Assembly: GCA_016707175.1 (NCBI GenBank)
Contig: JADJIB010000001.1
Span: 718,791-782,790 of the forward strand
From: Candidatus Phosphoribacter hodrii
Lineage (GTDB): Bacteria; Actinomycetota; Actinomycetes; Actinomycetales; Dermatophilaceae
Reading direction: 5' to 3'
Length of the DNA stretch: 64,000 nucleotides
The position numbers and the translations under genes were made by a program. Of this stretch, positions 1-64,000 are shown piece by piece. Every line of letters begins with the position of its first letter. The stretch's first letter is position 1. The notes beneath the pieces were generated by a model. It did not search any database and was not told where the DNA came from. It saw only the letters and a list, made by a program, of their open reading frames with translations.

Positions 1-319
1 CGATGAGGACGTGCTTGCCGGCCCGCGCCATGGCGACCGCGTGTTCGCGGTGGGCCGAGTGCGGCGACGCGACATAGACCGCGTCGACTTCGGGGTCGGC
101 ACCGAGGGCTTCGTGCCCGGCATACGCCCTCGGTATGCCGTGCCGCTCCGCGAACGAGCGCGCCCGACCCTCATCGCGTGAGGACACCGCGACGACCTGC
201 CCGGCAGTGAACTGGCTCACCGCCTCGGCGAACTTGTTGGCGATGCCACCCGGCGCGATGATGCCCCAGCGCAGGCTCGGTGCAGCAGCGGGGTCCAGGA
301 CGCCCAGCACGTCGCTCAT
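1..319 (-). CDS. Gfo/Idh/MocA family oxidoreductase, N-terminal part (gene runs off the window start)
   Basis: Manual minus-strand translation from ATG at 319-317: MSDVLGVLDPAAAPSLRWGIIAPGGIANKFAEAV...SSRDEGRARSFAERHGIP...VYVASPHSAHREHAVAMARAGKHVLI. This is a Rossmann-type N-terminus typical of the family. ATGA overlap with the OsmC stop. Confidence 0.7.
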   Translation of the reverse strand, partial: MSDVLGVLDPAAAPSLRWGIIAPGGIANKFAEAVSQFTAGQVVAVSSRDEGRARSFAERHGIPRAYAGHEALGADPEVDAVYVASPHSAHREHAVAMARAGKHVLI

Positions 320-765
320 TCCTGGCCCTCGTCGGCGATGACGGTGCGCACCGGGGTGGGCAGCATGACCGTCCGGCTGACCGTGCACAGTTTTTCGTGC
401 GAGAGCGAGACCAGCCGAGGGACGAGCGCCGCGGCAGCCGCCCCGGACTCGGTGTCCGGGAAGGAGATTCGGAAGGTCACCTCGACCTCCGACAGGTGGT
501 TGCCGAGGTTGTCGGAGACCTTGACCCCACTGCAGTCCACGACGAAGGACTCCGGCTCGCTGCGCCGGGTGGTCACCTCATCGACGTCAACGCTGGTGCA
601 ACCGGCGATCGCTGCGAGCAACAACTCGACCGGCGTGTAGTCGGAGTCTTGGCCACGGCCGAGCGTGACCGTGCCGCCGCGGGGGTTGGTCACGGCATAC
701 CGGCCGGCGGCGACGCGCTCCAAGCGGACCGAACGCAGGCCAAGGGAAGGGTCAGTCGAGGTCAT
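316..765 (-). CDS. OsmC/Ohr family protein
   Basis: C-terminal 149 aa of ORF 316..1065, starting at MTSTDPSLGL. YTPVELLLAAIAGCTSVD and HEKLCTVSRT are the two conserved Cys motifs of OsmC. Confidence 0.8.
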   Translation of the reverse strand: MTSTDPSLGLRSVRLERVAAGRYAVTNPRGGTVTLGRGQDSDYTPVELLLAAIAGCTSVDVDEVTTRRSEPESFVVDCSGVKVSDNLGNHLSEVEVTFRISFPDTESGAAAAALVPRLVSLSHEKLCTVSRTVMLPTPVRTVIADEGQE

Positions 766-810
766 GGGGACAGCCTGCCACGGGCAACGGGGGCAAGTAG
801 GGTGGTGTTC

Positions 811-1478
811 ATGAGCACTGATCCGACGGCGAGCGAGCCCAGCCCGCTCGACCCCACGGCCCCCCTCTCCTCCGGATACGATCCGGCGGCGACCACGCCG
901 ATGTCCCCGCCCCCGCCGGTGACGCCACCCCCTGCACCCGTCGGTCCCTGGGACAGCACCCCGGCCGCGCCCCCTGCCCCCGTCGCCCCGCCCGTTGCCG
1001 CGGCCCCGCCGGTTCCCGACTACGGGCAACCCGCCGCCTACGGCCAACCCGCTCCTTACGGACAACCCGCCCCTTACCCGCCCCTTACGGCCAGCAGCCT
1101 CCCTACGGGCAACAGCCGCCGTATGGCCAGCAGCCGGGTTACGGCCAGCCCGCCCCCTACGCCTCTCCGTATGCCGCGCCGCCCGCCTATGGCGGTGCTG
1201 CCTACGCCGGCATCGAGCACCCGCAGGGCACCTTGATCCTCATCCTCGGCATCCTCTCGATCGTCTTCTGCGGATTCACCGGGCCGTTCGCCTGGGTCAT
1301 GGGTCGCAAGGCCATGCGGGAGATCGACACCAGCGGCCAGCCCTACAGCAACCGCAGCCAGGTCCAGGCCGGCATGATCACCGGCATCATTGGCTCCGTC
1401 ATCCTCGTCCTCGGAGTCCTCTACTTCGTTTTCGTCTTCTTCATCGTCGGGATGGCGGCCAGCAGCAGCATTCGCTGA
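811..1478 (+). CDS. Pro/Tyr/Gly/Gln-repeat protein with C-terminal DUF4190 membrane domain; apparent frameshift in a C-run at 1081-1084
   Basis: ATG at 811. The PAAYGQPAPYGQPAPY repeats continue as PYGQQPPYGQQPPYGQQPGYGQPAPY...GTLILILGILSIVFCGFTGPFAWVMG only if one C is added at CCGCCCCTTACGG. ORF 1233..1478 carries the DUF4190-like TM part. Confidence 0.6.
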
Positions 1479-1502
1479 CCCACCCTCAACCCCGCGAACG
1501 TG

Positions 1503-1538
1503 AGGGGGCGGCATACCGAGTCGGTATGCCGCCCCCTC
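1503..1538. terminator. Perfect 36-bp palindrome (GAGGGGGCGGCATACCGA/TCGGTATGCCGCCCCCTC) between convergent genes; candidate bidirectional terminator
   Basis: Read directly. It is built from an inverted pair of the abundant octamer. No U-tract. Confidence 0.5.
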
Positions 1539-1557
1539 GCGTTGGTGCGCGAATCGG

Positions 1558-2772: not shown

Positions 2773-2866
2773 GGGTCCAGCCTCCCACGGCCGGTATGCC
2801 GCCCCCGCACGGGTTTCTCACCACGTGAGCAGACCGGGTTCAGCCAGGCGTGCGATGCTGGCAGGT

Positions 2867-3951: not shown

Positions 3952-4683
3952 TCAGGGCTCCGCGAGGTCCGAGGGGACCGAGACGCCGAGGAAGTGGGCG
4001 GTGTCTGCATCGACGGGGTGCGCCCAGACCTCGGCCGTCTCACCTTGCTGCACCAACCGTCCGGCTCGCATGATCGCCGTCCGATCGGCCACCGTGAAGG
4101 CATCGCCATGGTCGTGGGTCACCATCATGGCCGTCGTCCCAGTCTCGGTGAGCACGTGCCGCAGGTCAGTGGCCAGCCGCTCGCGCAGCGACCGGTCCAG
4201 CGCCGACAGCGGCTCATCGAGCAACAACAACCGCGGGCGGGCAGCCAGAGCCCGAGCCAACGCGACGCGCTGACCCTCGCCGCCGCTGAGCGTGGTGGGG
4301 CGGCGCGCGGCATACCCCGCGAGGCCGACGAGCTCGAGCAGGCGGTCGACCTCCGAGCGCGCCTGCGCGCCACGGATCCCCTTGCGCGCCAAGGCATAAC
4401 CGACGTTCCCGGCCACATCGAGGTGACCGAACAACTGCCCGTCCTGGAACATCATCGCGAAGCCACGCCGATGGGTGGGCACCCCCGCCAGATCCGACCC
4501 GTCGAAGCTCACCGAGCCCGACGCGAGCGGCTCGAGCCCGGCGACGGCCCGCAGCAGGCTGGACTTGCCACACCCTGACGGCCCAAGGATCGCCATCACC
4601 GTGCCCGAGGGGACCTCAAGGCTGACATCGTCGACCGCGCGGGTCGCCCCGAAAGACACCGACACACGGCTGATCGAGAGCAT
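3952..4683 (-). CDS. thiQ: ABC transporter ATP-binding protein (thiamine importer, ThiQ-like)
   Basis: Walker A GPSGCGKSS, signature LSGGEGQRVALARAL, Walker B LLLDEP. Last gene of an operon headed by a TPP riboswitch. Confidence 0.75.
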   Translation of the reverse strand: MLSISRVSVSFGATRAVDDVSLEVPSGTVMAILGPSGCGKSSLLRAVAGLEPLASGSVSFDGSDLAGVPTHRRGFAMMFQDGQLFGHLDVAGNVGYALARKGIRGAQARSEVDRLLELVGLAGYAARRPTTLSGGEGQRVALARALAARPRLLLLDEPLSALDRSLRERLATDLRHVLTETGTTAMMVTHDHGDAFTVADRTAIMRAGRLVQQGETAEVWAHPVDADTAHFLGVSVPSDLAEP

Positions 4684-6347
4684 CAGAAGGCCCCCACTGA
4701 CGACACCCGCAGGCGCTCAACGACACCCATGACGGTGACGGTGACAACGGCGAGGATGACCGACGCCGCGAGTGCCATGCCGAGATTGTCGACCCCCGGG
4801 CGTCCGATGAGGCGATAGATGACCACGGGGAGGGTCGGGCTGTCGGGTCGGGCCAGGAAGCTCGTCGCACCGAATTCCCCCAGCGAGACCGCGAGCGCCA
4901 GCCCGATGGCCGCGAGCAAGGGCCGCCAGATGATCGGCAGGTCCACGGTGGCGAGCACCTGCCAGGGGCGAGCACCCAACGTCGCCGCGACTTGCCGTTG
5001 CCGGTCGTCGATAGCCCGCAGCACCGGCGCAAGGGTCCGCACCACCAGGGGCAGGGCGACGATCGCTTGGGCGATCGGGATGAGCACCGGCGAGGTCCGC
5101 AGGTCCAACGGCGGCCGGTCCAACGTGATGAGGAAGCCGAAACCGACCGTCACCGCAGACACCCCCAATGGCAGCATGACCACCCCGTCGAGCAACCGGC
5201 GCCATCGCAGACCGCCCGGCGAGCGGGCCGGGCGCGAGACGAGCACGGCGACGAGCAGGCCGAGGACGACGGCGAGGATCGTGGCATCGATGGCGATCCG
5301 CCACGACGTGCCCAGCGCCTCCCACACGGTGACCGGCAGCGCGCTACGACCGTCAGCCCCGCCGACCCGTCCCAACGCAAGGTAGTAGTCCAGGGTCCAC
5401 TCCCCCTGGCGCCGCAGCGAGCGCACCACCAACGCCAGCACGGGAACCGCGACGAACGCGACCGCCAGCACCGTGGCAATCACCGAGCCCATCGCGTATG
5501 CCGTGACCCGCCCCGGCGCGATCGCGGACTTCGCGGCCCGCTGGGTCCCGGCGTCGCGGGAGCGGGCCCGATCGGCCAGCAGCAGCATGGCGACGACGGC
5601 GACGAGTTGGACGACCGACAACACCGCCGCCCCGCGCAGGTCGAACAGCGCCGTCGTCAGCAGGTAGATCTCGGTCTCGACGGTGCCGTAGGCCAGCCCG
5701 CCCATCGTCAGCACGACACCAAAAGCCGTGGCGCAGAAGAGGAACACGATGGACGCCGCCGAGATGATCGACGGTGCCAGGGCGGGCAGCGTCACGGTGC
5801 GGAAGACCGTTGCGGGTCCGGCGCCCAAGGTGGCCGCGGCCTCCTCGGGCCGGCGGTCCAAGCCCTCCCAAGCCGCTCCGACCGTGCGCACGACGACCGC
5901 GAGATTGAAGAACACGAAGGCGGCGAGTATGCCGCCCCACTCCCCGTCCAGCCCCAGCCCACCGAGCGCGCCGCCCTCGGCGAGCAACGACCGGAACATC
6001 ACGCCGACCACGACGGTCGGCAGAACGAAGGGCATCGCGACGATGGCCCGAAGCGTCCGACGGCCGGGCAGGGCCAACCGATAGAGGGCGTGGGCCACCG
6101 GCACCCCGACGACGACCGAGATCACGGTCGCGGCCGCCGAGATGGCCAGGGTGAAGCCGATGATCCGTTGGGTCCGGGCCCGGCCAAGGACCTCGGCGAA
6201 GCCACCGAGGTCCAGCACCCCGCCCGGCGCGAAGCCCCGGGCGAGCATGCCTGCGACCGGAAGGGCGAAGAAGATGGCGAGGAAGCCGAGCGGGAGGATC
6301 GCCGCGACCGTGGTCGCGGCGATCCTCCCGGCTCGGTCCCGGGTCAC
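4683..6347 (-). CDS. thiP: ABC transporter permease with two MetI-like halves (ThiP-like)
   Basis: 554-aa polytopic membrane ORF. GTGA overlap with the upstream binding-protein gene and ATGA overlap with the ATPase gene. Confidence 0.75.
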   Translation of the reverse strand: MTRDRAGRIAATTVAAILPLGFLAIFFALPVAGMLARGFAPGGVLDLGGFAEVLGRARTQRIIGFTLAISAAATVISVVVGVPVAHALYRLALPGRRTLRAIVAMPFVLPTVVVGVMFRSLLAEGGALGGLGLDGEWGGILAAFVFFNLAVVVRTVGAAWEGLDRRPEEAAATLGAGPATVFRTVTLPALAPSIISAASIVFLFCATAFGVVLTMGGLAYGTVETEIYLLTTALFDLRGAAVLSVVQLVAVVAMLLLADRARSRDAGTQRAAKSAIAPGRVTAYAMGSVIATVLAVAFVAVPVLALVVRSLRRQGEWTLDYYLALGRVGGADGRSALPVTVWEALGTSWRIAIDATILAVVLGLLVAVLVSRPARSPGGLRWRRLLDGVVMLPLGVSAVTVGFGFLITLDRPPLDLRTSPVLIPIAQAIVALPLVVRTLAPVLRAIDDRQRQVAATLGARPWQVLATVDLPIIWRPLLAAIGLALAVSLGEFGATSFLARPDSPTLPVVIYRLIGRPGVDNLGMALAASVILAVVTVTVMGVVERLRVSSVGAF

Positions 6348-7543
6348 TTGGCCGTGACCTCACTCCATTGACGCAACCAGGTGTCCCGCTGGGCGGCGAT
6401 CTGGTCGGGCGACACGACGAACGGCTTGTCCGCGACCTTGGCCCACTTCGCCCAGTCGGTCGGCAGGGTGGCGGTCGAGTCGACGGGGAACATGTACATC
6501 GAGTCGGGGATTGACGCCTGCACGGCCGGGCTCAGCAGGAACGAGACCAGAGCACGCGCCCCCTCGGGGTTGCGGGCGCCGGCCAGCACACCGGCATACT
6601 CCACCTGCCGGAAGCACGTGTCCAGGAGCGCCTTCGTCGTCGGCTCGGTGGCGGCCTTGGGGATCGTGAACGGCGGCGAGGAGGCGTAGGACAGGACGAT
6701 CGGGCGGGTCCCGTGGCCCTCGCCGGCGCTGAAGTCGACGGAGTAGGCGTCGGTCCAACCGGCGGTGATCTTCGTGCCGTTGGCCATCAACGCCTTCCAA
6801 TAGGCCTGCCAGCCATCGCCTTTCGCGCCGATGGTCGCGAGGAGGAAGGCCAGACCGGGGCTGGAGGTCGTCGCGCCCGGCGTGACGAAGAGGTCCTTGT
6901 ATGCCGGTTGGGTGAGGTCGTCGAGGGTCGCCGGGACCGGTTTGCCCTTGGCCGCGAACCACGTGTGGTCGACGTTGACGCACACGTCGCCGTAGTCGAT
7001 CGGCGTCAGTTTGGTGGCTGCGGCGCCGGGCAGCGCGTGGGCCGACGCGCCGGCGGGCAGGGTCGGGGAGTAGTCCGCGAGGACGCCCTCGGTGACGGCC
7101 CGGCTGGCGAAGGTGTTGTCGATCCCGAAGACGGCGTCGCCGATCGGCGAGGCCTTGGTGAGGGCGAGTTTGTTGGTCAGCTCGCCCGCGTCGCCGCTGG
7201 CCAGCACCTTGATCGTGCAGCCGGTCGCCTTGGTGAAGGCCGCGGTCAACTCGTCGGACAGCCCGAACGAGTCGTGGCTGACCAGCAGGACCTCGGTCAC
7301 AGCGCCGCACCGGGGTGCGGCCGTGCTGGACGGGCTGCTGACCTGGGACGCGGTCGCGGTCCCCGACGTCGTCGCGGGAGCTGTGGCGGTGGTCGTCGAG
7401 CTCAGCGAACAGGCCGAGAGCGACGCAGTGAGGGCGACCGCAAGAACGGCGCCGGGGATCGCGAAACGGTTCTTGCGCAAGGGATCCCTGCGGACGGGAC
7501 TCCTGCGCAACGGAACCCGGACGCGCGGGTGGGCGAACGGCAT
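6344..7543 (-). CDS. thiB: Thiamine ABC transporter substrate-binding lipoprotein (ThiB/TbpA-like)
   Basis: Signal/lipobox LTASLSACS. Family-1 SBP-like sequence. Directly downstream of the TPP riboswitch. Confidence 0.75.
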   Translation of the reverse strand: MPFAHPRVRVPLRRSPVRRDPLRKNRFAIPGAVLAVALTASLSACSLSSTTTATAPATTSGTATASQVSSPSSTAAPRCGAVTEVLLVSHDSFGLSDELTAAFTKATGCTIKVLASGDAGELTNKLALTKASPIGDAVFGIDNTFASRAVTEGVLADYSPTLPAGASAHALPGAAATKLTPIDYGDVCVNVDHTWFAAKGKPVPATLDDLTQPAYKDLFVTPGATTSSPGLAFLLATIGAKGDGWQAYWKALMANGTKITAGWTDAYSVDFSAGEGHGTRPIVLSYASSPPFTIPKAATEPTTKALLDTCFRQVEYAGVLAGARNPEGARALVSFLLSPAVQASIPDSMYMFPVDSTATLPTDWAKWAKVADKPFVVSPDQIAAQRDTWLRQWSEVTAK

Positions 7544-7599
7544 ACTGACATCTCCTCCTGGTTCAGGAGGGGCCGTCGACCCATCGAAGGTCGACGGGT

Positions 7600-8076: not shown

Positions 8077-8104
8077 CGCGGCATACCGGATCGCGTATGC
8101 CGCG
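8077..8104. terminator. Hairpin CGCGGCATAC-N8-GTATGCCGCG between convergent genes
   Basis: 10-bp stem made of an inverted octamer pair, seen directly. Confidence 0.4.
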
Positions 8105-9435: not shown

Positions 9436-9638
9436 GACACTCCTTGTCGATCGACTCGATCGTGCTCGACGGTGCCTCGACCACCACGTGGCCCGTCGAG
9501 GACAGCCTCCATCCTGACATTGCCAGGCGTCCAGATGTGACAACCGGGACTACCTGCCCCCTTTAAACCCTTCGTCGGCGTCGACGGCGGCGGCTGCGTC
9601 GTCGACGGCGGCACCGCGACGCGGCATACCCTGGGGCG

Positions 9639-13415: not shown

Positions 13416-14084
13416 ATGTCCGTTCGGCAGAGCCTGTTGGCGCTGCTGCGGGAGGGCCCCCGCTACGGCGCGTTGCTGAAGGCGGACTTCGAGGCCCGCA
13501 CCGGCGGCGTCTGGCCGCTCAACGTCGGTCAGGTCTACACGACCCTGGCCCGGCTCGAGCGCGACGGCCTCGTCGTCGGCGACGGCAAGCCCGACGAGGA
13601 GGGCCGGATCGCCTATCGCCTCACCGAGGCCGGTCGCGCCGAGGCCGACTCGTGGTGGCTGGCTCCCGTCGGCGTCGCCGAGCCCGCCCGCGACGAACTC
13701 GTCATCAAACTCGCCCTCGCGATCGCCACCCCCACCGTCGACCCGTATGCCGTGATCCAGACCCAGCGTGGCGCCACGATGCGTCACCTGCAGGAGCTCA
13801 CCCGGCTCAAGGTGGCCCTCACCGCACCGCTCACCGCGCCCCCGGCCACCATCGGCGTCGACCCCGAGCTGCTCGTCCTCGAGCATCGCCTGTTCGCCGT
13901 CGAAGCCCAACTCCGCTGGCTCGACCACGCCGAGGCGAGCCTGGCCGCGAACCCAGCCCCACGGCATACCCACCCCGCAGCACCCACCGCCCAGCCCGCG
14001 CCCATCAACGGAACCACCACTCGCGTCACAGCACCGCCCATCTCCCACCCAGCTCACACCGTCCCAACAGGGGGAACCCCATGA
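13416..14084 (+). CDS. PadR family transcriptional regulator
   Basis: LLALLREGPRYGALLKADFEARTGGVWPLNVGQVYTTLARLERDGLV winged-helix motif. Confidence 0.85.
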   Translation: MSVRQSLLALLREGPRYGALLKADFEARTGGVWPLNVGQVYTTLARLERDGLVVGDGKPDEEGRIAYRLTEAGRAEADSWWLAPVGVAEPARDELVIKLALAIATPTVDPYAVIQTQRGATMRHLQELTRLKVALTAPLTAPPATIGVDPELLVLEHRLFAVEAQLRWLDHAEASLAANPAPRHTHPAAPTAQPAPINGTTTRVTAPPISHPAHTVPTGGTP

Positions 14085-50269: not shown

Positions 50270-51703
<1,434 letters not shown>

Positions 51704-53184: not shown

Positions 53185-53208
53185 GAGGTATGCCGCGCGG
53201 CATACCTC
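53185..53208. promoter_or_regulatory. 24-bp perfect palindrome GAGGTATGCCGC/GCGGCATACCTC in the divergent fprA / K+-channel intergenic region
   Basis: Seen directly. Function unknown. Confidence 0.3.
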
Positions 53209-54329: not shown

Positions 54330-55556
54330 TCAGGCCTCGTCGAGGGGGCGCAGCACCAGGCCGGTGCGCAGTTTGGGTGTGAAGAACGTCGACTTGGGTG
54401 GCATGAGCAGGCCCTCGCGCGCCGTCCGCTCGATCTGCTCGAGGCTGGTCGGGCGGATAAGGATCGCCAGGGCCTGCGGGTCGGCGTGCAGCACATCGAG
54501 CACCTCGGCCACCCCGTGCTGGTAGTCCAGCACCGCCCCTGTCCCGGCCAGCGTGTGCTCCAGCCAGGCGCCGTCGAGCGCCCGCACGTCGTCGAAAGCC
54601 CCCGGCCGCGGCACCAACCAGGTCGCCACCTCCGGTGACTCGATGAGCAACAACCGCCCTGAGCGGTTGAGCTCGGCGAGCAGCGCCGGGCCGGGCTGGG
54701 CGGCGGGGGCGGGCACCAACTCGAAGTCCCTCGCCAACGCCTCCCGCAAGGCTGCCGGGGTCAGGCCCCGGACAATGCGGTGGATGGCGTCGATAGCCAA
54801 CTGATCGGCGACGAGCTCGCCCACGAAGGCCAACGTGGCCCCCGCCCCGGATGCGCTCTCGGGCTCTTTGGCCTCCGCCATCTCATCGCGGTAGCGCCGG
54901 GCCACGCCATAACGGTGGTGACCGTCGGCGATCAACACGTCGTCGGCGCCGATGATCGCCGAGATCGCGGCGATCCGGTCGGGGTCGATAACCCGCTCGA
55001 CGACATGTTCGACGCCGTCGACGACCAGACTCCCCATCGGCTCGGCGGGCTCGGCGAGCGCAGCGGTCAAACCCTGCGCCAGCGACAGCCCCCAGACCGG
55101 CGAGAGGTTGGTGCCAGTGGCCCGGGTGAGATCGAGACGGTCGGTCGACGCCTTGGGCGTGGTCCGCTCATGCGGAAGCACCTGACCGGCCCCCTCAGCG
55201 ACCACCTCCAACCCGCCGAGAACCCCGACCAACTCGCGTCGCTGGCCGGCTTCGTCGACGAAACGCATCCGATAGATCGACAGCGTCGGCACCTCGTCAC
55301 GGACCAGGACGCCGGTCTCCTGCCAGTCGCGCAGCAGGTGCGCGGAGGCGGCATACCGGGTCGAGTCGGTGCCTGCGGGGATGTCCGCGTGGACGATGTT
55401 GTGCGGGTCGCGAGCCCGAAGTGCGGCGACGTCGGCGTCGGACAACACGTCGTAGGGCGGTGCGATGACGGCGTCGAGGTCGATTCCGGGCGCGTAGCGC
55501 AGAGCCCGGAACGGCTCGAACCGAGGCCCGCGAGAAGGGGCAGGTGCGGGCGGCAT
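54330..55556 (-). CDS. DUF1015 domain-containing protein
   Basis: FEPFRALRYAP...VIAPPYDV...LPHERT...ADGHHRY...LMPPKSTFFTPKLRTGLV. Confidence 0.85.
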   Translation of the reverse strand: MPPAPAPSRGPRFEPFRALRYAPGIDLDAVIAPPYDVLSDADVAALRARDPHNIVHADIPAGTDSTRYAASAHLLRDWQETGVLVRDEVPTLSIYRMRFVDEAGQRRELVGVLGGLEVVAEGAGQVLPHERTTPKASTDRLDLTRATGTNLSPVWGLSLAQGLTAALAEPAEPMGSLVVDGVEHVVERVIDPDRIAAISAIIGADDVLIADGHHRYGVARRYRDEMAEAKEPESASGAGATLAFVGELVADQLAIDAIHRIVRGLTPAALREALARDFELVPAPAAQPGPALLAELNRSGRLLLIESPEVATWLVPRPGAFDDVRALDGAWLEHTLAGTGAVLDYQHGVAEVLDVLHADPQALAILIRPTSLEQIERTAREGLLMPPKSTFFTPKLRTGLVLRPLDEA

Positions 55557-55803
55557 ACCTGGAAGTCTAGGCAACGAGTGAGCCTGCCTCCGTGAGCAGT
55601 TCGAGATGCGGAACCGCAGACTGTGGGCAACAATGCTCATGTATGCCGCGTGTCGGCGAACGGTGGCGCTCCCCCTCGTGTCCATCGCTCGGGCCATGCC
55701 CCTGGCCTCACCGCACGCGGCATACCCATGCCCTCGGGTCGTGGGAGACTCGGGACGGGCTCCGACCCGGGGCCGCCGGACCAGGGAGGCGCGCGGTAGC
55801 CGC

Positions 55804-57843
55804 ATGAACTTCTTCTCCATCTATGACCACGGCTTCGCGCGGGTCGCTGCCTGCACGGTCCCGGTGCGTCTCGTCGACCCGGCCGCCAATGTCGCCGCCA
55901 CGTTGGCCGTGGCGCGCGAGTGCCACGACGAGGGCGTTGCCGTCGCGGTGTTCCCGGAGTTGGGACTGACCGGCTACTCGCTGGACGACCTCGTGCTGGC
56001 CGACCCACTGCTCGACGCAGTCGAGGTCGCGCTCGAGGAGTTGGTGCGAGCATCGGCCCAGTTGTTGCCGGTGTTGGTCGTCGGGGCGCCCTTGCGCGCA
56101 CGAGGGCGGGTCTATAACTGCGCGGTCGTCGTGCACCGGGGGCGGGTGCTCGGGGTGGCGCCGAAGTCTTACCTGCCGACCTATCGCGAGTTCTATGAGT
56201 CGCGGACCATCGCGGCCGGCGACGACGTGCGCGGGACCATTCGGGTCGGCGAGGACAACGTGCCGTTTGGGCCGGATCTGCTCTTCCGGGCCGTCGATGT
56301 GCCTGACCTCGTCGTCCACGTCGAGGTCTGCGAGGACATGTGGGTCCCGATCCCACCGTCGGCCGAGGCCGCGCTGGCCGGAGCCACGGTGCTCGTCAAC
56401 GTGTCGGGGTCGCCGATCACGGTCGCCAAGGCGCGCGACCGCGCGATGCTCGCCGAGTCGGCCTCCTCACGCTGCCTCGCGGCATACCTGTATGCCGCTG
56501 CCGGAGAAGGCGAGTCGAGCACCGACCTCTCGTGGGACGGCCAGACCATGGTCTGGGAGAACGGGTCGCTGCTGGCCGAGGGCGAGCGCTTCCCGTCGGG
56601 GCCACGACGGTCGGTCGCCGACGTGCACCTGGCGAGGCTGCGGCAGGAGCGGATGCGTCAGGGGACGTTCGACGACAACCGGCGCACTCACGCGGCGCGG
56701 GTCGGGGCGTTCCGCGAGGTGACCTTCCGGTTGGATCCGCCGCGGGGCGATCTCGGGCTGCGTCGGGCAGTCGACCGCTATCCGTTCGTGCCGGACGACG
56801 CGGCCCGGTTGGCGCAGGACTGTTTCGAGGCGTATTCGATCCAGGTGTCGGGGCTAGAGCAGCGGCTGCGCTCGATCGGCCGACCGACGGTGGTCATCGG
56901 GGTGTCGGGTGGGCTCGACTCGACCCACGCGCTGATCGTCGCGTGCCGGGCGATGGACCGGTTGGGGCGGCCCCGCTCGGACGTGCTGGCCTTCACCATG
57001 CCGGGGTTCGCGACCTCGGATCACACGAAGGGCAACGCGATCCGGCTGATGGAGTCGCTCGGGGTCACCTGGGAGGAGCTCGACATCCGGCCGGCGGCCA
57101 CCCAGTTGCTCCGCGACCTCGGGCACCCGGTGGGGCGCGGCGAGGAGGTCTATGACGTCACCTTCGAGAACGTCCAGGCCGGCCTGCGCACCGACTATTT
57201 GTTCCGAATCGCCAACCAGCGCAAGGGGATCGTGCTCGGCACGGGCGACCTGTCCGAGCTCGCCCTGGGCTGGTGCACCTATGGCGTCGGCGATCAGATG
57301 TCGCACTACGGGGTCAACACGGGGGTGCCCAAGACGCTCATCCAGCACCTCATCCGGTGGGTCATCGCCTCGGGCCAGTTCAGCGACGAGGTGGGGGCGA
57401 CCCTGCGTTCGATCCTCGACACGACGATCAGCCCCGAGTTGGTGCCGACCCGTGAGGGTGAGGCGGCCCAGTCGACCGAGGCCATGATCGGGCCGTATGC
57501 CCTGCAGGATTTCACGCTGTATTACGTCCTGCGCCACGGCTTGCGACCGTCGACGATCGCCTTCCTGGCCTGGCATGCCTGGCACGACACGGCGAGCGGG
57601 CAGTGGCCGGAAGGTTTCCCCGAAGGTGCGCGCACGGCATACACCCTGGGGGAGATCCGGCACTGGCTGGAGGTCTTCCTCACCCGGTTCTTCGCCAACC
57701 AGTTCAAGCGCTCGGCGCTGCCCAACGGCCCGAAGGTGGTCCGCGGCGGTTCGCTGTCGCCCCGAGGCGATTGGCGTATGCCGTCCGACGCGTCCGCGAA
57801 GGTCTGGCTCGACGAGTTGCACAGCACCGTCCCCGAAGCCTGA
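55804..57843 (+). CDS. nadE: Glutamine-dependent NAD+ synthetase
   Basis: 679 aa. CN-hydrolase domain (VFPELGLTGY, CEDMW) and synthetase domain (GVSGGLDSTHAL). CLAAYLYAAAGEGESSTDLSWDGQTMVWENG is close to mycobacterial NadE. Confidence 0.95.
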   Translation: MNFFSIYDHGFARVAACTVPVRLVDPAANVAATLAVARECHDEGVAVAVFPELGLTGYSLDDLVLADPLLDAVEVALEELVRASAQLLPVLVVGAPLRARGRVYNCAVVVHRGRVLGVAPKSYLPTYREFYESRTIAAGDDVRGTIRVGEDNVPFGPDLLFRAVDVPDLVVHVEVCEDMWVPIPPSAEAALAGATVLVNVSGSPITVAKARDRAMLAESASSRCLAAYLYAAAGEGESSTDLSWDGQTMVWENGSLLAEGERFPSGPRRSVADVHLARLRQERMRQGTFDDNRRTHAARVGAFREVTFRLDPPRGDLGLRRAVDRYPFVPDDAARLAQDCFEAYSIQVSGLEQRLRSIGRPTVVIGVSGGLDSTHALIVACRAMDRLGRPRSDVLAFTMPGFATSDHTKGNAIRLMESLGVTWEELDIRPAATQLLRDLGHPVGRGEEVYDVTFENVQAGLRTDYLFRIANQRKGIVLGTGDLSELALGWCTYGVGDQMSHYGVNTGVPKTLIQHLIRWVIASGQFSDEVGATLRSILDTTISPELVPTREGEAAQSTEAMIGPYALQDFTLYYVLRHGLRPSTIAFLAWHAWHDTASGQWPEGFPEGARTAYTLGEIRHWLEVFLTRFFANQFKRSALPNGPKVVRGGSLSPRGDWRMPSDASAKVWLDELHSTVPEA

Positions 57844-58809: not shown

Positions 58810-59283
58810 TTGGGGGCTGTTCGAGGTCCGGCGCCTTTCCTCCCTCGGGGCCCAGGCCTGCGAGGCCTCGGCGTCCCAGGAGTCAAGTGGGCAGGCACCT
58901 TCACGCTCGATGGCGAGCGTCACTTCTGGAACGTCACCGGGTCGGCCGCCACCATCGTCGTGCAGTTGGCCGACGAGCACTACGACCGCCTCTACCTCAC
59001 CGTCGCCGACCCCAGCGCCACCGTGGACGCCATCAACGCCGCCATCGCCACCCCCGACGGATCAACGGCGACCCGCCACCCCACACACCAGGGGGCCAGG
59101 CAGCAGCGACCTCAACCCCGGCCGAGGCCAGGCACCTACGCGAGCGGGTTCCACCGAACCGACAGCACGAGCGCGCCCGCCACGACGAGCGCCGCCAGGA
59201 TCGCCAGGTATGCCGTGACCTCCAGGTCCTCACGCTGCAGCACGACCTCGCGCGGGATCCCTCGCAGGACCTCGCCGAGCTGA
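58810..59283 (+). CDS. Orphan ORF; only the segment WAGTFTLDGERHFWNVTGSAATIVVQLADEHYDRLYLTVADPSATVDAINAA looks protein-like; start and stop unresolved
   Basis: ORF track. TTG start. The 3' 150 nt overlap the convergent VWA gene, so the true end is probably earlier or lost through an indel. Confidence 0.2.
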   Translation: MGAVRGPAPFLPRGPGLRGLGVPGVKWAGTFTLDGERHFWNVTGSAATIVVQLADEHYDRLYLTVADPSATVDAINAAIATPDGSTATRHPTHQGARQQRPQPRPRPGTYASGFHRTDSTSAPATTSAARIARYAVTSRSSRCSTTSRGIPRRTSPS

Positions 59284-60281
59284 GCGGCATCGCTCGCCTG
59301 GTGGTAGGCCCCGCCGGTGGTGGCCGCGACGGCCTTCAGGGTGGGCTCATCGACGACCAGGAAGTTGCGCCCTCCGCCAAACCCACCGCCCGGGGCCTGT
59401 CCACCCGGGGCCTGTCCGACCTGCCCGCCGGATCGCGGCCCAAACTCACCGAAAGCGTCCCCGCCCAACTGCTCGGCGGTGCACACCATCTGGGTCGGAT
59501 TCGTCGTGCCGAAACCGATGGGATAGACCCGGATCCGGCGCTCGGCCGCGAGTTTGGCCGCCGCCACCGGCAGCACCCCACGCGTGTTGGCACCGTCGGT
59601 GAGCAGCACGACGATGTCCGACACGAAGCCGCCAGTCGCTCCAGGCGGCGGGTCGATCGAACTCGGCACCGGCGCCGGGACGCCCGGCTGCTGCATGGTG
59701 TCGGGCCCGAGCGGCACCTCGCCGATCGGTTGCACCTGGGAGTTGATCGCGGCGATCGCATCGACCGACGTGAGGATGGCCGACCCGATCGCCGTCCCGC
59801 GCCCGGTGCTCAGCCCGTCGAGCGACGTCAGCACCGCCGCCGAGTCGGTCGTCGGCGGCACGACGAGTGCAGCCGATCCCGAGAACGCGACCAGCCCGAA
59901 CCGAGTGTCCCTCGGCTGGGTCTCGACGAACTCCTGGACGGCCGTCCGCGCGGCCGAAAGCCGGTTGGGCGCGACGTCGGTGGCACACATCGAGCGCGAC
60001 ACGTCCAGCGCGAGGATGATCGTCGAGCGCTGGATCGGGACCTCGACCGAGGCCTGCGGCCGGGCGACTGCCAGCCCCAACAGCCCGACGCCCAGCACGA
60101 GCAGCGCAACCGGCAGATGCGGACGCCAGCGGGAACGCGCGGGCAGCGCGGCACGCACGAGCGCGAGATCCGGATGCCGGACGGCATACCTGCGCCTCCG
60201 TCGCAACGACCAGAGGTATGCCGCGAGCAGCGCCGGAGCGAGCAGCACCGCGAGCAGGGCGTAGGGCCACGCGAACGACAC
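59136..60281 (-). CDS. VWA domain-containing membrane protein (BatB-like)
   Basis: N-terminal TM pair. MIDAS LDVSRSM. C-terminal TM. Confidence 0.85.
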   Translation of the reverse strand: MSFAWPYALLAVLLAPALLAAYLWSLRRRRRYAVRHPDLALVRAALPARSRWRPHLPVALLVLGVGLLGLAVARPQASVEVPIQRSTIILALDVSRSMCATDVAPNRLSAARTAVQEFVETQPRDTRFGLVAFSGSAALVVPPTTDSAAVLTSLDGLSTGRGTAIGSAILTSVDAIAAINSQVQPIGEVPLGPDTMQQPGVPAPVPSSIDPPPGATGGFVSDIVVLLTDGANTRGVLPVAAAKLAAERRIRVYPIGFGTTNPTQMVCTAEQLGGDAFGEFGPRSGGQVGQAPGGQAPGGGFGGGRNFLVVDEPTLKAVAATTGGAYHQASDAAQLGEVLRGIPREVVLQREDLEVTAYLAILAALVVAGALVLSVRWNPLA

Positions 60282-61274
60282 TCAGATCACCCGCCCGGTC
60301 CGCAGGATCGACGTGCTGGCGGCGGCGACCAGGATGAGCAGGGCGGCCGCCGCGAACAGCGCCGAGATCTCGATGTGCACGGGGGTGCTGGTCATCGCGA
60401 GGTCGATCGAGCCGTAGACATCGGCGAGGGACGCCTCGTCGGGTGCCGCCCGATAGCGCCCACCCGTCGCGTCGGCGATCGCCGTCAGCGTCGCCTCGTC
60501 CAACTGCGTCGCCGCCGTGAAGCCGTTGACGGTCACCGTCGTCCCGGCCGGGTCGCCCAGCCCGACGGTGTTGATCTTGACACCCGCGACACCGGCGAGC
60601 TCGGCCAACGCCAGGGGGTCCAGGCGCGAGGTGTCCTCACCGTCGGACAGCAGGACGATGGCCGATGACCCGAAGTACCCGATGTCGAGGCTCTCGATGT
60701 CCCCCGCCAACTGCTCTTCGGTGATCGCGAGCTTCCCTCCAGCAATTGCCTTGAGCGACGCGAAGATTCCCTGCCCCAACGACGTGCCCCCTTGGGGCGT
60801 CAACCGATCGATGGCCGCCACGGCCTCGGCCTGCACGAGCGTCGGAGCCTGCAGGACCACCGCGCTGTCCCCGAAGGACACGACCCCGATCCGGATCGTG
60901 CTCGGCTGCCGCGCAACGAAGGCCTTCGCCGCCGCCTTGGCCGCTGCCATCCGGGTCGGCGCCACGTCGGTGGCCGTCATGCTCGTCGAGGCGTCGATCG
61001 CGAGGATCACCGTCCCCTCGCGGCGCAGGTCGGGCACGGTGGCCTGCGGACGCGCGGCGGCGAGCACCAACAGCCCCAGCGTCAGACCCAGCGCGGTCGG
61101 GACGACCCAACCTCGTCGACGACGACCCCCGGCCAACACCGGAGCGAACCCGAGTGCCGCGAGCTCGGCGCGCCGGGCCGCTCGGCGGGCTCGCACGATT
61201 CGGTATGCCGCGGCGAGACCGGGCACGAGAAGGAGCCCGAGCAGCGCCCAGGGGGAAGCGAACGTCACTGGCAT
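60282..61274 (-). CDS. VWA domain-containing membrane protein (BatA-like)
   Basis: Start MPVTFASPWALLGLLL at 61274. MIDAS IDASTSM. Confidence 0.85.
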   Translation of the reverse strand: MPVTFASPWALLGLLLVPGLAAAYRIVRARRAARRAELAALGFAPVLAGGRRRRGWVVPTALGLTLGLLVLAAARPQATVPDLRREGTVILAIDASTSMTATDVAPTRMAAAKAAAKAFVARQPSTIRIGVVSFGDSAVVLQAPTLVQAEAVAAIDRLTPQGGTSLGQGIFASLKAIAGGKLAITEEQLAGDIESLDIGYFGSSAIVLLSDGEDTSRLDPLALAELAGVAGVKINTVGLGDPAGTTVTVNGFTAATQLDEATLTAIADATGGRYRAAPDEASLADVYGSIDLAMTSTPVHIEISALFAAAALLILVAAASTSILRTGRVI

Positions 61275-62170: not shown

Positions 62171-63231
62171 GCGGGGTCCACGTTGGCGGGGATCGGCTCG
62201 GCCACCCCTGAGGTATGCCGCCCTCCCGCAGTCTCGGGCAGCGGCACCGCCGCGAGGATCGGGCCGAGCAGGTCGTCGGCGCTGACGTCATCGGCCAGGG
62301 CCTCGTAGCTGAGCACCATCCGATGACGCAGGACATCGGGCGCAAGCTCCCGGGCATCCATCGGGATGACGTAATCACGGCCACGCAGATAGGCCAACGC
62401 CCGGGCCGCCAGCACGATGTTGATCGACGCGCGAGGGCTGGCACCGAAGGACAGATAGCGGGCCAGTTCGGGAAGCCCCACGACGCCTGGGTCACGGGTC
62501 GCACCCGCAAGCGCGACGGCATACTGGATCACTCCGGGGTCGACGTAGACCGTGTCGACGGCGGCCTGCAGCCCCCGAAGTCCGTCCGCGTCGAGGACCG
62601 CGTCGATCCGCTCGGCCGCGCGGATCATCCGCTCGACGACGACGTATTCCTCTGTGGCAGAGGGATATCCGACGAGCACCTTGAGCATGAACCGGTCGAC
62701 CTGCGCCTCGGGGAGCGGATAGGTGCCCTCGGACTCGATGGGGTTCTGGGTGGCCATGACGAGGAACGGGTCCGGCGCGGAGAAGGTCTCGCGGCCGATC
62801 GTCACCTGGCGTTCCTGCATGACCTCCAGCAGGGCGCTCTGCACCTTGGCCGGCGCCCGGTTGATCTCGTCGGCGAGGACGAGGTTGGCGAAGACGGGGC
62901 CGAGCGACACCTGGAAGTCGCCAGTCTGCTGGTTGTAGATCCGGGTGCCGATGAGGTCGGCGGGGACCAGGTCGGGCGTGAACTGGATGCGCTTGAAGTC
63001 CACCCCGATCGCCTCGGCGAGCGTCTTGATCGCCATCGTCTTGGCCAGGCCGGGGACGCCCTCCACAAGCAGGTGCCCGCGGGCCAGGAGCGCGACGAGC
63101 ATCCGCTCGAGGAGTTGGTCCTGGCCGACGATGGTCCGCTTCACCTGGTAGAGCATCTGCTCGAGCGGGTGGGCGCCTGGCCCCGGCGAGGGGGCGGCGG
63201 CAGAGGTGCCGGCGGCAAAGGGAGTCGACAT
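62149..63231 (-). CDS. MoxR-family AAA+ ATPase
   Basis: HLLVEGVPGLAKT Walker A, LADEINRAPAKVQSALLEVMQE, VMATQNPIE. Confidence 0.9.
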   Translation of the reverse strand: MSTPFAAGTSAAAPSPGPGAHPLEQMLYQVKRTIVGQDQLLERMLVALLARGHLLVEGVPGLAKTMAIKTLAEAIGVDFKRIQFTPDLVPADLIGTRIYNQQTGDFQVSLGPVFANLVLADEINRAPAKVQSALLEVMQERQVTIGRETFSAPDPFLVMATQNPIESEGTYPLPEAQVDRFMLKVLVGYPSATEEYVVVERMIRAAERIDAVLDADGLRGLQAAVDTVYVDPGVIQYAVALAGATRDPGVVGLPELARYLSFGASPRASINIVLAARALAYLRGRDYVIPMDARELAPDVLRHRMVLSYEALADDVSADDLLGPILAAVPLPETAGGRHTSGVAEPIPANVDPAWYRRPE

Positions 63232-63239
63232 CTGGCTCC

Positions 63240-64000
63240 TTAGATCGAGGGTCCGCCGGCGGCGCCGCCGGCTGTCGCGATCGGCACGGCGAAACCGATG
63301 CCGACGAAGAAGGGTTGCTTGGACGGGTTGGCGAGCGCAGTGACGATGCCGACGACCTGACCAGCCGAATTGAGCAGTGGCCCACCGGAATTGCCCGGGT
63401 TGACGGCCGCGTCGAACTGGATGAGGTCGGCGAGCTTGAGCCCTTCCGCCTCGATCGTTCGCCCGGTCGCTGACACGACACCGGACGACAGCGACGCGGT
63501 GAGACCGAGGGGATGGCCGACGGCATACACCGGGTCGCCGACGCGCACGCCCCCACCGAGGACCGCTGGCACGACGACCTGCGGGAGTTGGTCGGCCACG
63601 AGCACCGCGATGTCGTTCTCCGGCTGCGCGCTCTGGACCCGAGCGGGGGCACGGGTGCCGTCGGCGAAGGTCACCGTGATCGCGCCGCCGCCGCTGACGA
63701 CGTGGTTGGCGGTGAGGATCGCGCCCTCCTGGCTGACGATGACGCCCGTCCCCAGGCCCTGCGCAGCCGGATCGCCTCCCCCGCCAACGGTTTCGATGAT
63801 GACGAGGCTCGCAGCAACCTGGGCGTATGCCGTGCTGGCGGCTGACGGGGCCCGCGCGGCTTCGGCCAGCGCCTTGTCGACGACTTTCGCGGCGGCCTTG
63901 TCGATCTCGGCCTGGGTGAGCGGCGCGGGGGCGCGTAGGTCCCGCACGAGCAGGGTGCCCGAGAGGCCGGCGAGTGCCACGAGGACCACCGTGAGGATCC
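63240..64000 (-). CDS. S1C (HtrA/trypsin-like) serine protease, C-terminal part (gene runs off the window end)
   Basis: ILTANHVV (His), DIAVL (Asp), NPGNSGGPL (Ser) catalytic triad motifs. Confidence 0.8.
   Translation of the reverse strand, partial: ILTVVLVALAGLSGTLLVRDLRAPAPLTQAEIDKAAAKVVDKALAEAARAPSAASTAYAQVAASLVIIETVGGGGDPAAQGLGTGVIVSQEGAILTANHVVSGGGAITVTFADGTRAPARVQSAQPENDIAVLVADQLPQVVVPAVLGGGVRVGDPVYAVGHPLGLTASLSSGVVSATGRTIEAEGLKLADLIQFDAAVNPGNSGGPLLNSAGQVVGIVTALANPSKQPFFVGIGFAVPIATAGGAAGGPSI

Follow-up and report, generated by a model that had tools for sequence, protein, structure and literature searches.

Candidatus Phosphoribacter hodrii is an abundant polyphosphate-accumulating Dermatophilaceae lineage of activated sludge that was formerly placed in Tetrasphaera (PMC9123174). 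Here we report an octamer, GTATGCCG (in the other orientation CGGCATAC; hereafter the word), that recurs throughout a 64,000-nucleotide stretch of its genome (assembly GCA_016707175.1, contig JADJIB010000001.1, positions 718,791 to 782,790; hereafter the window). The window has a G + C (GC) content of 70.3% and carries ordinary transport and metabolism genes; 58 genes were called by codon-usage score, consistent, wherever compared, with protein-family matches and public gene calls. Its NadE, GdhA, CNNM-family transporter and alanine aminotransferase match proteins of Ca. P. hodrii metagenome assemblies without a difference (for example MBK7272290.1). Methyltransferase, nuclease and competence genes were not found in these 64 kb, and a tRNA search of the window returned none.

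A machine count gave 105 exact copies of the word (1.64 per kb), 54 on the forward and 51 on the reverse strand, the same numbers that an earlier reading of the bare sequence (the original prediction) had tallied by hand. Dinucleotide-preserving shuffles (n = 100) contained 1.09 ± 1.22 copies (maximum 6), and pooled non-Dermatophilaceae actinobacterial loci of equal GC content (1.2 Mb) predict 1.7 copies per 64 kb; the word stands ~60-fold over expectation in the window. With an artefactual poly-G block set aside, it is the commonest 8-mer; the runners-up (59 and 58 copies) are its own one-base extensions, and the top unrelated 8-mer has 56 copies. The word is found in every 4-kb bin (4–12 copies each) and its orientation is balanced in each 8-kb bin, so that the strand bias of Chi or of FtsK-orienting polar sequences (KOPS) is absent, as had been claimed.

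The conserved part of the copies comprises the 8 bp plus weak flanks (at most about 12 bp shared), and the flanks are otherwise unrelated. G stands at position -1 in 55% of the copies, and position +9 is C in 56% and T in 30%, which bears out the reported context (G)GTATGCCG(C); the commonest extended form in the window is GGTATGCCGC. A 13-mer, GTATGCCGTTCGC, was recovered at all five places listed previously (7533-7545 on the reverse strand, 12855-12867, 32869-32881, 42891-42903 and 54125-54137), in different reading frames and with unrelated flanks, against ~0.1 copies expected given 105 words (a rough estimate from base composition); it may be a second flank class of the word. GTATGCCG differs from its own reverse complement, i.e. 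it is not a palindromic octamer like the highly iterated palindrome HIP1. A shared element of tens of base pairs inserted mostly between genes, as in repetitive extragenic palindromic (REP) sequences or miniature inverted-repeat transposable elements (MITEs), was not found either, and whereas a restriction-modification target is avoided in its host, the word is 60-fold enriched.

Called genes hold 75 copies (71%) and the other 30 lie between called genes; all six frames are occupied (x-Y-A-x 28, x-A-Y 21, G-I 9, M-P 8, R-H-T 7, V-C-R 2), in accordance with the original prediction. Synonymous codon shuffles within genes produced 6.96 ± 2.59 genic copies (maximum 15 in 500 shuffles), ~26 standard deviations from the observed 75, and this null is conservative, since the rare codons of the word itself are recycled. 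Codons redrawn from pooled usage gave 4.55 ± 2.0. The word fills 75 of the 107 synonymously permissive coding sites (70%), with an occupancy of 28/31 for x-Y-A-[VADEG], 7/7 for R-H-T, 2/2 for V-C-R, 21/31 for x-A-Y, 8/13 for x-M-P and 9/23 for x-G-I-x. Occupancy appears to be limited by codon cost, because the empty sites mostly require ATA or two to three changes; of the window's 14 ATA codons, nine fall within the word, which had been noted to bring in rare codons. The proteome is also shaped by the word, as permissive peptides are inflated about two-fold (107 vs 51.3 ± 7.0 in residue shuffles). Subwords are not enriched apart from the full 8-mer, and the force behaves as strong, sharply specific and per-site.

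What is conserved at orthologous word sites is the DNA and not the protein. When nadE is aligned by codons, nine of ten Dermatophilaceae keep the site xCG-GCA-TAC (57635..57642), with T, P or A as the first residue and NCG codons throughout, and six outgroups use other codons there. In the peptide W-R-M-P-S-D of the same gene, five of ten family members use the rare codon CGT, giving CGT-ATG-CCG, where outgroups with the same peptide have CGG or CGC. The segment AAYLYAAA is encoded as GCG GCA TAC CTG TAT GCC GCT and contains two words, as described in the original prediction; both are shared with three relatives. The word sites of the alignment are free of indels. Among six conspecific metagenomic strains, which diverge by 1–4.8%, none of 256 word bases is variable, against 14.9 expected at a variable-site rate of 5.8%; the flanks are partly protected over ~4 bp per side (3/128 and 2/128 variable), with background values beyond. 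The failure of the codon-aware nulls, the use of six frames, the nadE site and the invariance among strains strongly support selection or drive on the DNA word itself, as originally proposed. None of the outcomes that had been named as speaking against that proposal was seen in the window: the count is not low, a codon-aware null does not suffice, and no single frame dominates.

The taxonomic range was surveyed at the nadE loci of ~80 actinobacterial species among the matches listed, plus nearer relatives retrieved by exact-protein look-up. Ranked by enrichment, the word comes first or within the first few 8-mers in each of the 13 sampled Dermatophilaceae loci, which represent at least five genera. 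Its density there is 0.27–1.6 per kb: 1.09–1.59 in three related metagenome-assembled genomes (MAGs), 0.77 in 'Rothia' sp. ARF10, 0.75 in Knoellia, 0.59–0.73 in Arsenicicoccus, 0.65 in an Intrasporangiaceae MAG, 0.63 in Intrasporangium, 0.41–0.46 in Terrabacter and 0.27 in one further MAG. The mean of ~70 other actinobacterial loci (Mycobacterium, Streptomyces, Nocardioides, Pseudonocardia, Micropruina and others) is 0.027 per kb. Across the family the 8-bp core is constant and the flanks vary by genus. The window and its close relatives favour G at -1 (48–55%) and C at +9 (46–56%), Arsenicicoccus and the remaining loci favour C at -1, and 19 of 29 Terrabacter copies read CGTATGCCGT.

Some of these loci deserve a separate remark. 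The one labelled 'Rothia sp. ARF10' (L079) has 72% GC, a NadE 69% identical to that of the window and the density given above, and its organism name is probably wrong. The Terrabacter form CGTATGCCGTC (loci L007–L009, 12 copies in 66 kb) is also found as an 11-base stretch in the Illumina P7 adapter (...TCGTATGCCGTCTTCTGCTTG); the match is a coincidence, and it could trigger spurious adapter trimming in Terrabacter genomes.

Acquired DNA differs from its surroundings. A strain-specific island of 4.5 kb in locus L004 (16691-21189) contains no word against ~7 expected at equal GC (70.6%), and its GTAC density is 2.67 per kb, which is normal for Actinobacteria, against 0.36 per kb in the remaining locus. 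It encodes two phage-integrase-family genes and DUF6262; in its place, other strains carry genes for a cation diffusion facilitator (CDF) transporter, an ArsR-type regulator and a methyltransferase. Tetrasphaera phage TJE1, a 49.2-kb phage of T. jenkinsii that at 58% GC is not ameliorated to its host, contains the word twice, with 1.9 copies expected. Inverted word pairs were sought in 2.9 million viral contigs (IMG/VR); the 91 loci obtained are of mixed GC and at chance level, with no contig at host-like density, and count as weak negative evidence, and a copper-ATPase search of PLSDB found no Dermatophilaceae plasmid among the best 25 matches. One island and one phage indicate that the word process is confined to long-resident DNA.

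The window also has a conspicuous deficit of GTAC, its most depleted tetramer (24 vs ~146 expected, 0.16x). GTAC is depleted whatever the next base (GTACC 0.14x, GTACA 0.18x), and among word-rich relatives (L087–L089, L181–L184) its density spans 0.38–2.45 per kb (outgroups, 2.36 per kb), uncoupled from word density. The deficit resembles ordinary avoidance of a restriction site (RsaI-type) by individual lineages. GTACGCCG is absent from the window because GTAC is independently ~6-fold depleted, and not through conversion into the word; its absence (0 vs ~15) was rejected as proof of directed C-to-T conversion, and the expectation of ~15 was inflated by GTACGCCG-rich Nocardioidaceae loci in the baseline. 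Conversely, GTAC avoidance was rejected as a cause of the word, since the two are uncoupled among relatives and many copies are not derivable from GTAC. A further deficit, of AGCTG/CAGCT, is confined to the window (0.37x; family loci 1.08x, close relatives 0.81x) and may reflect avoidance of a strain- or species-specific PvuII-type site (CAGCTG).

In Nocardioidaceae, GTACGCCG, one base off GTATGCCG, is itself the top enriched 8-mer (127 vs 16.2 expected, 7.9x; 0.4–1.2 per kb in the Nocardioides and Marmoricola loci L033, L040, L056, L058, L062, L063, L066 and L086). Variants of the form GTACGNCG that have A, G or T at position 6 are enriched there as well (2.5–4x). This signal is fuzzier than in Dermatophilaceae and is centred on the palindrome CGTACG.

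Inverted word pairs within 30 bp are in excess (11 vs 2.5 expected), and direct pairs are missing (0 vs 2.5 expected). Three inverted pairs lie between convergent genes (1509/1524, 8079/8095 and 48193/48208), and it is this position that suggests a terminator function; the pair 8079/8095 folds weakly (z -1.6). Most copies stand outside these hairpins (Table 1). Five genes, all on the reverse strand, appear to use the ATG within the word (GT-ATG-CCG, Met-Pro) as their start codon, at 7543, 25106, 26572, 41166 and 55556. The starts at 25106 and 26572 match independent public gene calls in L001, and the one at 7543 is preceded by a GGAGGAG ribosome-binding site.

Table 1. Copies of the word and associated hairpins in the window. 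CDS, coding sequence; ORF, open reading frame; SDR, short-chain dehydrogenase/reductase; capital letters after a CDS give the peptide at the word.
Feature	Position	Strand	Context
word	118..125	-	CDS 2-319(-), AYAG; inverted pair with 133
word	133..140	+	CDS 2-319(-), HGIP; inverted pair with 118
word	693..700	-	CDS 316-765(-), RYAV
word	1169..1176	+	between called genes
word	1509..1516	-	left arm, hairpin between convergent genes
word	1524..1531	+	right arm, hairpin with 1509
word	2794..2801	+	between called genes
word	4308..4315	-	CDS 3952-4683(-), GYAA
word	5496..5503	+	CDS 4683-6347(-), TAY
word	5927..5934	+	CDS 4683-6347(-), GGIL (ATA codon)
word	6592..6599	-	CDS 6344-7480(-), EYAG
word	6899..6906	+	CDS 6344-7480(-), PAY
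word	7538..7545	-	holds apparent ATG start (7543), thiamine-binding protein ORF 6344-7543(-); GTATGCCGTTCGC
word	8079..8086	-	left arm, pair between convergent 7783-8076(+) and 8110-9435(-)
word	8095..8102	+	right arm, pair with 8079
word	9622..9629	-	between called genes
word	11024..11031	+	CDS 11021-12343(-), AAY
word	11440..11447	-	CDS 11021-12343(-), AYAG
word	12221..12228	+	CDS 11021-12343(-), AAY
word	12493..12500	-	CDS 12291-13298(+), SAY
word	12599..12606	+	CDS 12291-13298(+), GYAA
word	12855..12862	+	CDS 12291-13298(+), VCR; 13-mer variant
word	13006..13013	-	CDS 12291-13298(+), AAY
word	13216..13223	+	CDS 12291-13298(+), RMP
word	13745..13752	+	CDS 13416-14084(+), PYAV
word	13962..13969	-	CDS 13416-14084(+), RHT
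word	14778..14785	+	CDS 14081-14944(+), SMP; inverted pair with 14792
word	14792..14799	-	CDS 14081-14944(+), RHT; inverted pair with 14778
word	14850..14857	+	CDS 14081-14944(+), GMP
word	15721..15728	-	between called genes
word	18069..18076	-	left arm, hairpin 18052-18108, in called ORF
word	18084..18091	+	right arm, hairpin 18052-18108
word	18677..18684	+	CDS 18268-18750(-), RHT
word	18861..18868	+	between called genes
word	18939..18946	+	between called genes
word	19427..19434	-	CDS 19095-19685(-), QYAV
word	20721..20728	+	CDS 20362-21309(+), VYAV
word	21521..21528	-	CDS 21393-23057(-), LYAA
word	22160..22167	+	CDS 21393-23057(-), HGIR
word	23127..23134	-	between called genes
word	23232..23239	+	CDS 23143-23778(+), LYAA
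word	23682..23689	+	CDS 23143-23778(+), LYAV
word	24467..24474	-	CDS 23763-25106(-), PYAV
word	25101..25108	-	holds apparent ATG start (25106), polysaccharide deacetylase gene
word	25666..25673	-	CDS 25367-26572(-), RYAV
word	26162..26169	+	CDS 25367-26572(-), PAY
word	26335..26342	+	CDS 25367-26572(-), TGIR
word	26567..26574	-	holds apparent ATG start (26572), aminotransferase gene
word	28935..28942	-	CDS 28740-29312(+), RHT
word	29389..29396	+	CDS 29309-30733(+), SYAA
word	29670..29677	-	CDS 29309-30733(+), AAY
word	29941..29948	+	CDS 29309-30733(+), AYAA
word	32686..32693	-	CDS 32279-34003(-), TYAV
word	32869..32876	+	CDS 32279-34003(-), NGIQ; 13-mer variant
word	33196..33203	-	CDS 32279-34003(-), SYAG
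word	34486..34493	-	between called genes
word	34966..34973	-	between called genes
word	35486..35493	+	CDS 34988-36217(-), AAY
word	36185..36192	+	CDS 34988-36217(-), TAY
word	37331..37338	-	CDS 36969-38180(-), LYAG
word	38359..38366	+	between called genes
word	38636..38643	+	CDS 38472-39173(+), GYAA
word	38867..38874	-	CDS 38472-39173(+), RGIR
word	40006..40013	-	between called genes, possibly in frameshifted DUF1295 gene
word	40259..40266	+	between called genes, possibly in frameshifted DUF1295 gene
word	40644..40651	+	CDS 40342-41166(-), HGIQ
word	41161..41168	-	holds called ATG start (41166), SDR gene
word	41365..41372	-	CDS 41292-42032(+), AAY
word	41578..41585	+	CDS 41292-42032(+), GMP
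word	42417..42424	-	CDS 42095-42631(+), AAY
word	42891..42898	+	between called genes; 13-mer variant
word	43643..43650	-	CDS 43580-44875(-), GMP
word	43931..43938	+	CDS 43580-44875(-), PAY
word	44234..44241	+	CDS 43580-44875(-), TAY
word	45323..45330	-	between called genes; inverted pair with 45337 (weak hairpin)
word	45337..45344	+	inverted pair with 45323
word	45648..45655	-	CDS 45644-46153(+), AAY
word	46948..46955	-	CDS 46895-48163(+), RGIR; inverted pair with 46966
word	46966..46973	+	CDS 46895-48163(+), RYAA; inverted pair with 46948
word	48193..48200	-	left arm, hairpin between convergent genes
word	48208..48215	+	right arm, hairpin with 48193
word	50703..50710	+	gdhA CDS 50270-51625(-), RHT; inverted pair with 50731
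word	50731..50738	-	gdhA CDS, EYAA; inverted pair with 50703
word	51248..51255	-	gdhA CDS, GMP
word	52385..52392	+	CDS 52293-53009(+), GYAV
word	52772..52779	-	CDS 52293-53009(+), RGIH
word	53188..53195	+	half of 20-bp palindrome 53187-53206
word	53198..53205	-	other half of 20-bp palindrome 53187-53206
word	54125..54132	+	CDS 53251-54315(+), RMP; 13-mer variant
word	55349..55356	-	CDS 54330-55556(-), RYAA
word	55551..55558	-	holds called ATG start (55556), DUF1015 gene
word	55641..55648	+	between called genes
word	55718..55725	-	between called genes
word	56480..56487	-	nadE GCG GCA TAC (AAY); shared with 3 relatives
word	56490..56497	+	nadE CTG TAT GCC GCT (LYAA); shared with 3 relatives
word	57635..57642	-	nadE ACG GCA TAC (TAY); 9/10 family members
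word	57776..57783	+	nadE CGT ATG CCG (RMP); patchy, 5/10 family members
word	59208..59215	+	CDS 59136-60281(-), TAY
word	60182..60189	-	CDS 59136-60281(-), RYAV
word	60216..60223	+	CDS 59136-60281(-), AAY
word	61203..61210	+	CDS 60282-61286(-), AAY
word	62213..62220	+	CDS 62149-63231(-), RHT
word	62517..62524	-	CDS 62149-63231(-), QYAV
word	63521..63528	-	CDS 63240-63998(-), VYAV
word	63825..63832	+	CDS 63240-63998(-), TAY
terminator-like hairpin, word in both arms	1493..1547		-52.6 kcal/mol, z -10, stem beyond word; between convergent genes 1233-1478(+) and 1558-2772(-)
hairpin, words 18069/18084	18052-18108		-42.5 kcal/mol, z -5.7; within called ORF
terminator-like hairpin, word in both arms	48182..48227		-39.0 kcal/mol, z -7.6, stem beyond word; between convergent genes 46895-48163(+) and 48266-49054(-)
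perfect 20-bp palindrome GGTATGCCGCGCGGCATACC	53187-53206		two words as halves

Other features of the window include a thiamine pyrophosphate (TPP) riboswitch (7593-7695, reverse strand; RF00059, 59.4 bits) upstream of a thiamine ATP-binding cassette transporter operon (3952-7543) that encodes a substrate-binding protein, a permease and an ATPase. The poly-G block (30740-31575) consists of ~835 bp of nearly pure G/C with G runs of up to 64 nt; at its position strains L001, L003 and L005 carry an Abhydrolase_3 gene and strains L002, L004 and L006 carry nothing, and most probably it arose in assembly or polishing, at a locus that varies between strains. A run of 13 G occurs at 49095-49107. Four genes appear truncated relative to family profiles or relatives (39511-40340, DUF1295, C-terminal half only; 41292-42032, saccharopine dehydrogenase; 43580-44875, alpha-glucosidase/trehalase; 45644-46153, Amidase_2), which suggests frameshift errors of the MAG; because of these suspected frameshifts, some of the words counted as intergenic may lie in genes.

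Taken together, the data establish a family-specific, orientation-free process that acts at the level of DNA and makes and keeps the 8-bp word GTATGCCG where coding allows. Because the process has these properties, codon or dipeptide bias, a mobile element, adapter sequence and a polar Chi or KOPS signal are ruled out. Among the four roles listed in the original prediction (uptake or recombination signal, site of a binding protein, methyltransferase target, footprint of biased repair), the data do not decide. We tentatively favour, with a probability of roughly 0.37, a tag of kin DNA for uptake or transfer plus recombination, because the word has the descriptive hallmarks of the DNA uptake sequence (DUS) and the uptake signal sequence (USS), and because natural transformation is found in the same order, in Micrococcus luteus, where it involves Flp/Tad pili plus ComEA/ComEC (PMC4322843).

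Under this uptake or transfer reading, both the receptor of the word and the driver being ones that we infer, GTATGCCG would be a 'self' word, written and maintained by sequence-specific biased conversion and not by codon or protein needs. A double-strand DNA receptor of an uptake or cell-to-cell transfer machine would read the 8-bp core, with a weaker preference for ~4 bp per side, and kin DNA with the word would be imported and recombined preferentially. Word-bearing alleles would then displace word-less alleles, by a molecular drive like that proposed for DUS and USS, until permissive sites are nearly full. Inverted word pairs would secondarily be used as terminator-like hairpin stems, and the internal ATG of the word would serve as a start codon for some genes.

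The likeness to DUS and USS is broad. The word is over-represented in both orientations, in genes and between them, is family-wide with lineage-specific flanks, accumulates by point mutation, is missing from an acquired island and is accompanied by an about two-fold inflation of permissive peptides. Findlay and Redfield reported an inflation of about two-fold for true uptake sequences, densities of 1,471–1,892 USS or DUS per roughly 2 Mb, and their absence from genes without homologues (PMC2817400). At 1–1.6 per kb, the density of the word is similar.

Several observations weigh against uptake or transfer. Uptake sequences show a graded mismatch enrichment: single-mismatch forms are enriched ~3x in H. 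influenzae and 5.8x in N. gonorrhoeae, and double-mismatch forms also exceed 1 (PMC1939737, Table 1). No such gradient (3–6x for one mismatch, above 1x for two) was found for GTATGCCG. Relative to a baseline of non-Dermatophilaceae, non-Nocardioidaceae loci, and with GTAC-containing single-mismatch variants excluded, the window has 0.59x of single-mismatch forms (25 vs 42.5) and 0.83x of double-mismatch forms (511 vs 616); other family members have 1.0–1.18x and 0.83–0.94x, respectively. How far away the next word lies has no bearing on whether a permissive site is filled (medians 272 and 252 bp, p = 0.92), and because occupancy ignores neighbours, a force acting per site is simpler than an advantage per imported fragment. 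The spacing of the words is not significantly more even than random when the same merge rule is applied in the simulations (p = 0.11); an apparent evenness (coefficient of variation 0.79, p = 0.01) was withdrawn, close pairs having been merged in the real data only. The evidence on acquired DNA comes from one island and one unameliorated phage. To our knowledge, sequence-specific uptake is not known in Gram-positive bacteria. Competence or receptor genes were found neither in the window nor in the fetched loci, a literature search returned no report of them for the genus, and the paper describing the genus mentions no repeats, pili or competence (PMC9123174).

The main rival, possible but less likely, is sequence-directed repair or gene conversion, in which a family-specific nuclease or repair factor would resolve a mismatched word toward the word, site by site, like very-short-patch repair and as discussed for HIP1, and possibly tied to DNA modification; losses of the word would be undone and chance steps toward it made permanent. 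It agrees with a force that looks per-site, fills 70% of the permissive sites independently of neighbouring words and is limited mainly by codon cost (ATA being hardest), and with the invariance of word bases among strains. Near-cognates are depleted, the one- plus two-mismatch deficit of ~122 sites being roughly equal to the excess of 103 perfect words, and the count falls steeply from 105 perfect copies to ~1 per single-mismatch variant. HIP1, an 8-mer of similar density, is tied to methyltransferases. What speaks against repair is that the word is non-palindromic, that subwords are not enriched outside the full 8-mer, that methyltransferase, Vsr-like or nuclease genes were not seen within the 64 kb plus the nadE loci, and that a lytic phage of a family member has no excess. 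Known very-short-patch repair shifts word frequencies only a few-fold, not 60-fold, and we know of no 8-bp-specific mismatch-repair enzyme of this kind. Because the word behaves per site, the data hint at a new repair or conversion activity on an asymmetric 8 bp, which would amount to a per-site, family-wide 'genome-writing' drive that saturates sites and depletes near-cognates; we regard this version as doubtful.

It is unlikely that an abundant chromosomal protein, such as a nucleoid organiser or condensin loader, binds the word and that weak selection for a function in cis keeps each copy. Recognition does appear to be double-stranded and orientation-free, the protected footprint of ~16 bp is typical of a DNA-binding domain, the copies are spread fairly uniformly over the window, and a family-wide trait with variable flanks could track a co-evolving protein. 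Such selection, however, must be strong enough to impose ATA codons and to double the permissive peptides, near-cognate depletion is not expected from it, and the spacing is not significantly regular. Known architectural sites (parS, matS and the Noc- and SlmA-binding sites NBS and SBS) are present in tens to about a hundred copies per genome and not in thousands.

A Chi-like signal for AdnAB/RecBCD, or a KOPS- or TRS-like guide (TRS, TraB recognition sequence) for an FtsK/TraB-type translocase, is very improbable. It would share with GTATGCCG the over-representation of an 8-mer that marks resident DNA and is missing from the island and the phage, and KOPS, the SpoIIIE recognition sequence (SRS), TRS and the Chi of E. 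coli also have 8 bases. Polarity, however, defines Chi and KOPS, and the word has none. Its density of 1.6 per kb far exceeds that of Chi, which occurs in E. coli about once per 4.5 kb, and Chi and KOPS are enriched few-fold, not 60-fold.

Finally, a by-product of composition (codon or dipeptide bias, GTAC avoidance turning G-TAC-GCC-G into G-TAT-GCC-G, a mobile element or adapter contamination) is hardly credible. In its favour, GTAC is 6-fold depleted with GTACGCCG absent, the YA and AY frames make up 49 of the 75 genic copies, and the Illumina P7 adapter includes the word. Against it, the codon-aware null yields 7 copies vs 75 observed, 26 genic copies are in frames not synonymously derivable from GTAC words and 30 lie between genes, CGT-ATG-CCG comes from CGG or CGC precursors, word density and GTAC avoidance vary separately from relative to relative, and at most about 8–15 GTACGCCG copies were available for conversion. 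A mobile-element origin was rejected on the unrelated flanks and on copies in frame at orthologous codons without indels, and adapter contamination on the presence of the word in independently sequenced isolate genomes and at conserved orthologous codons.

Hyper-abundant words have so far been characterised, as far as we found, in three clades, the Neisseriaceae, the Pasteurellaceae and the cyanobacteria, and two of these three cases brought to light a mechanism by which kin preferentially exchange DNA. The present word would be either the first sequence-specific uptake or transfer signal in a Gram-positive lineage or the trace of a novel form of sequence-directed repair. Its family also contains the polyphosphate accumulator that dominates wastewater plants worldwide (PMC9123174). 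Cultured carriers (Terrabacter, Intrasporangium, Knoellia, Arsenicicoccus) allow direct testing, and if the uptake reading is true, the word in constructs may be key to genetic tools for these organisms. Together with the GTAC deficit it is a sharp compositional marker that could serve to bin Dermatophilaceae contigs and to flag recent islands at identical GC. A full-text literature search found no description of GTATGCCG or of any uptake- or HIP-type word for Actinobacteria, in line with the original prediction, although hits to the word itself were swamped by papers on Illumina adapters; neither this lineage nor the word appears in the Nanomotif supplements.

Among known systems, the comparison with DUS, USS and HIP1 suggested by the original prediction is apt. 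DUS of Neisseriaceae (GCCGTCTGAA, with dialects) and USS of Pasteurellaceae (AAGTGCGGT) are, like GTATGCCG, short non-palindromic words with a density of ~1 per kb that occur in either orientation, within genes as well as between them; they are family traits with variation among genera (here in the flanks) and an about two-fold peptide inflation, are absent from recently acquired DNA, are more conserved than their surroundings and form inverted pairs as terminator-like hairpins. The present word differs in its host, a Gram-positive actinobacterium with no known competence, in the depletion of near-cognates that are 3–6x enriched there, in a core of 8 bp with a steep drop to single-mismatch variants, and in the occupancy of 70% of permissive sites independently of neighbouring words; the dialects of DUS vary, whereas the core of GTATGCCG is constant.

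HIP1 of cyanobacteria (GCGATCGC) is likewise a conserved, clade-wide octamer at ~1 per kb in all frames and with no settled function, for which a link to horizontal transfer and methyltransferases has been proposed in the literature. It occurs in another phylum and is a palindrome that contains methylation targets, with whole alternative palindromes as variants, whereas GTATGCCG is asymmetric, has no known tie to a methyltransferase and varies in its flanks only. REP sequences and bacterial interspersed mosaic elements (BIME), as well as MITEs, resemble the word in high copy number and in some hairpins between convergent genes; here only 8 bp (at most ~12) are common, 71% of the copies lie in genes, and they are frame-compatible and without indels. 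Chi and KOPS or architecture-imparting sequences (AIMS) are over-represented words of 5–8 bp that are read by a motor on double-stranded DNA and mark the own chromosome, but they are skewed between strands with replication and enriched few-fold, against 54:51 and 60-fold for GTATGCCG.

An actinobacterial parallel is offered by the TRS/clt repeats (clt, cis-acting locus of transfer) of Streptomyces conjugative plasmids, 8-bp words read on double-stranded DNA by the FtsK-like transfer motor TraB; they occur in few clustered plasmid copies, against thousands across the chromosome here. By analogy, a TraB-like motor is a possible alternative reader of the word if transfer should be conjugation-like rather than by uptake. 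With GTATGCCG, the hyper-abundant genomic word is now present in a new phylum, and with a distinctive quantitative behaviour.

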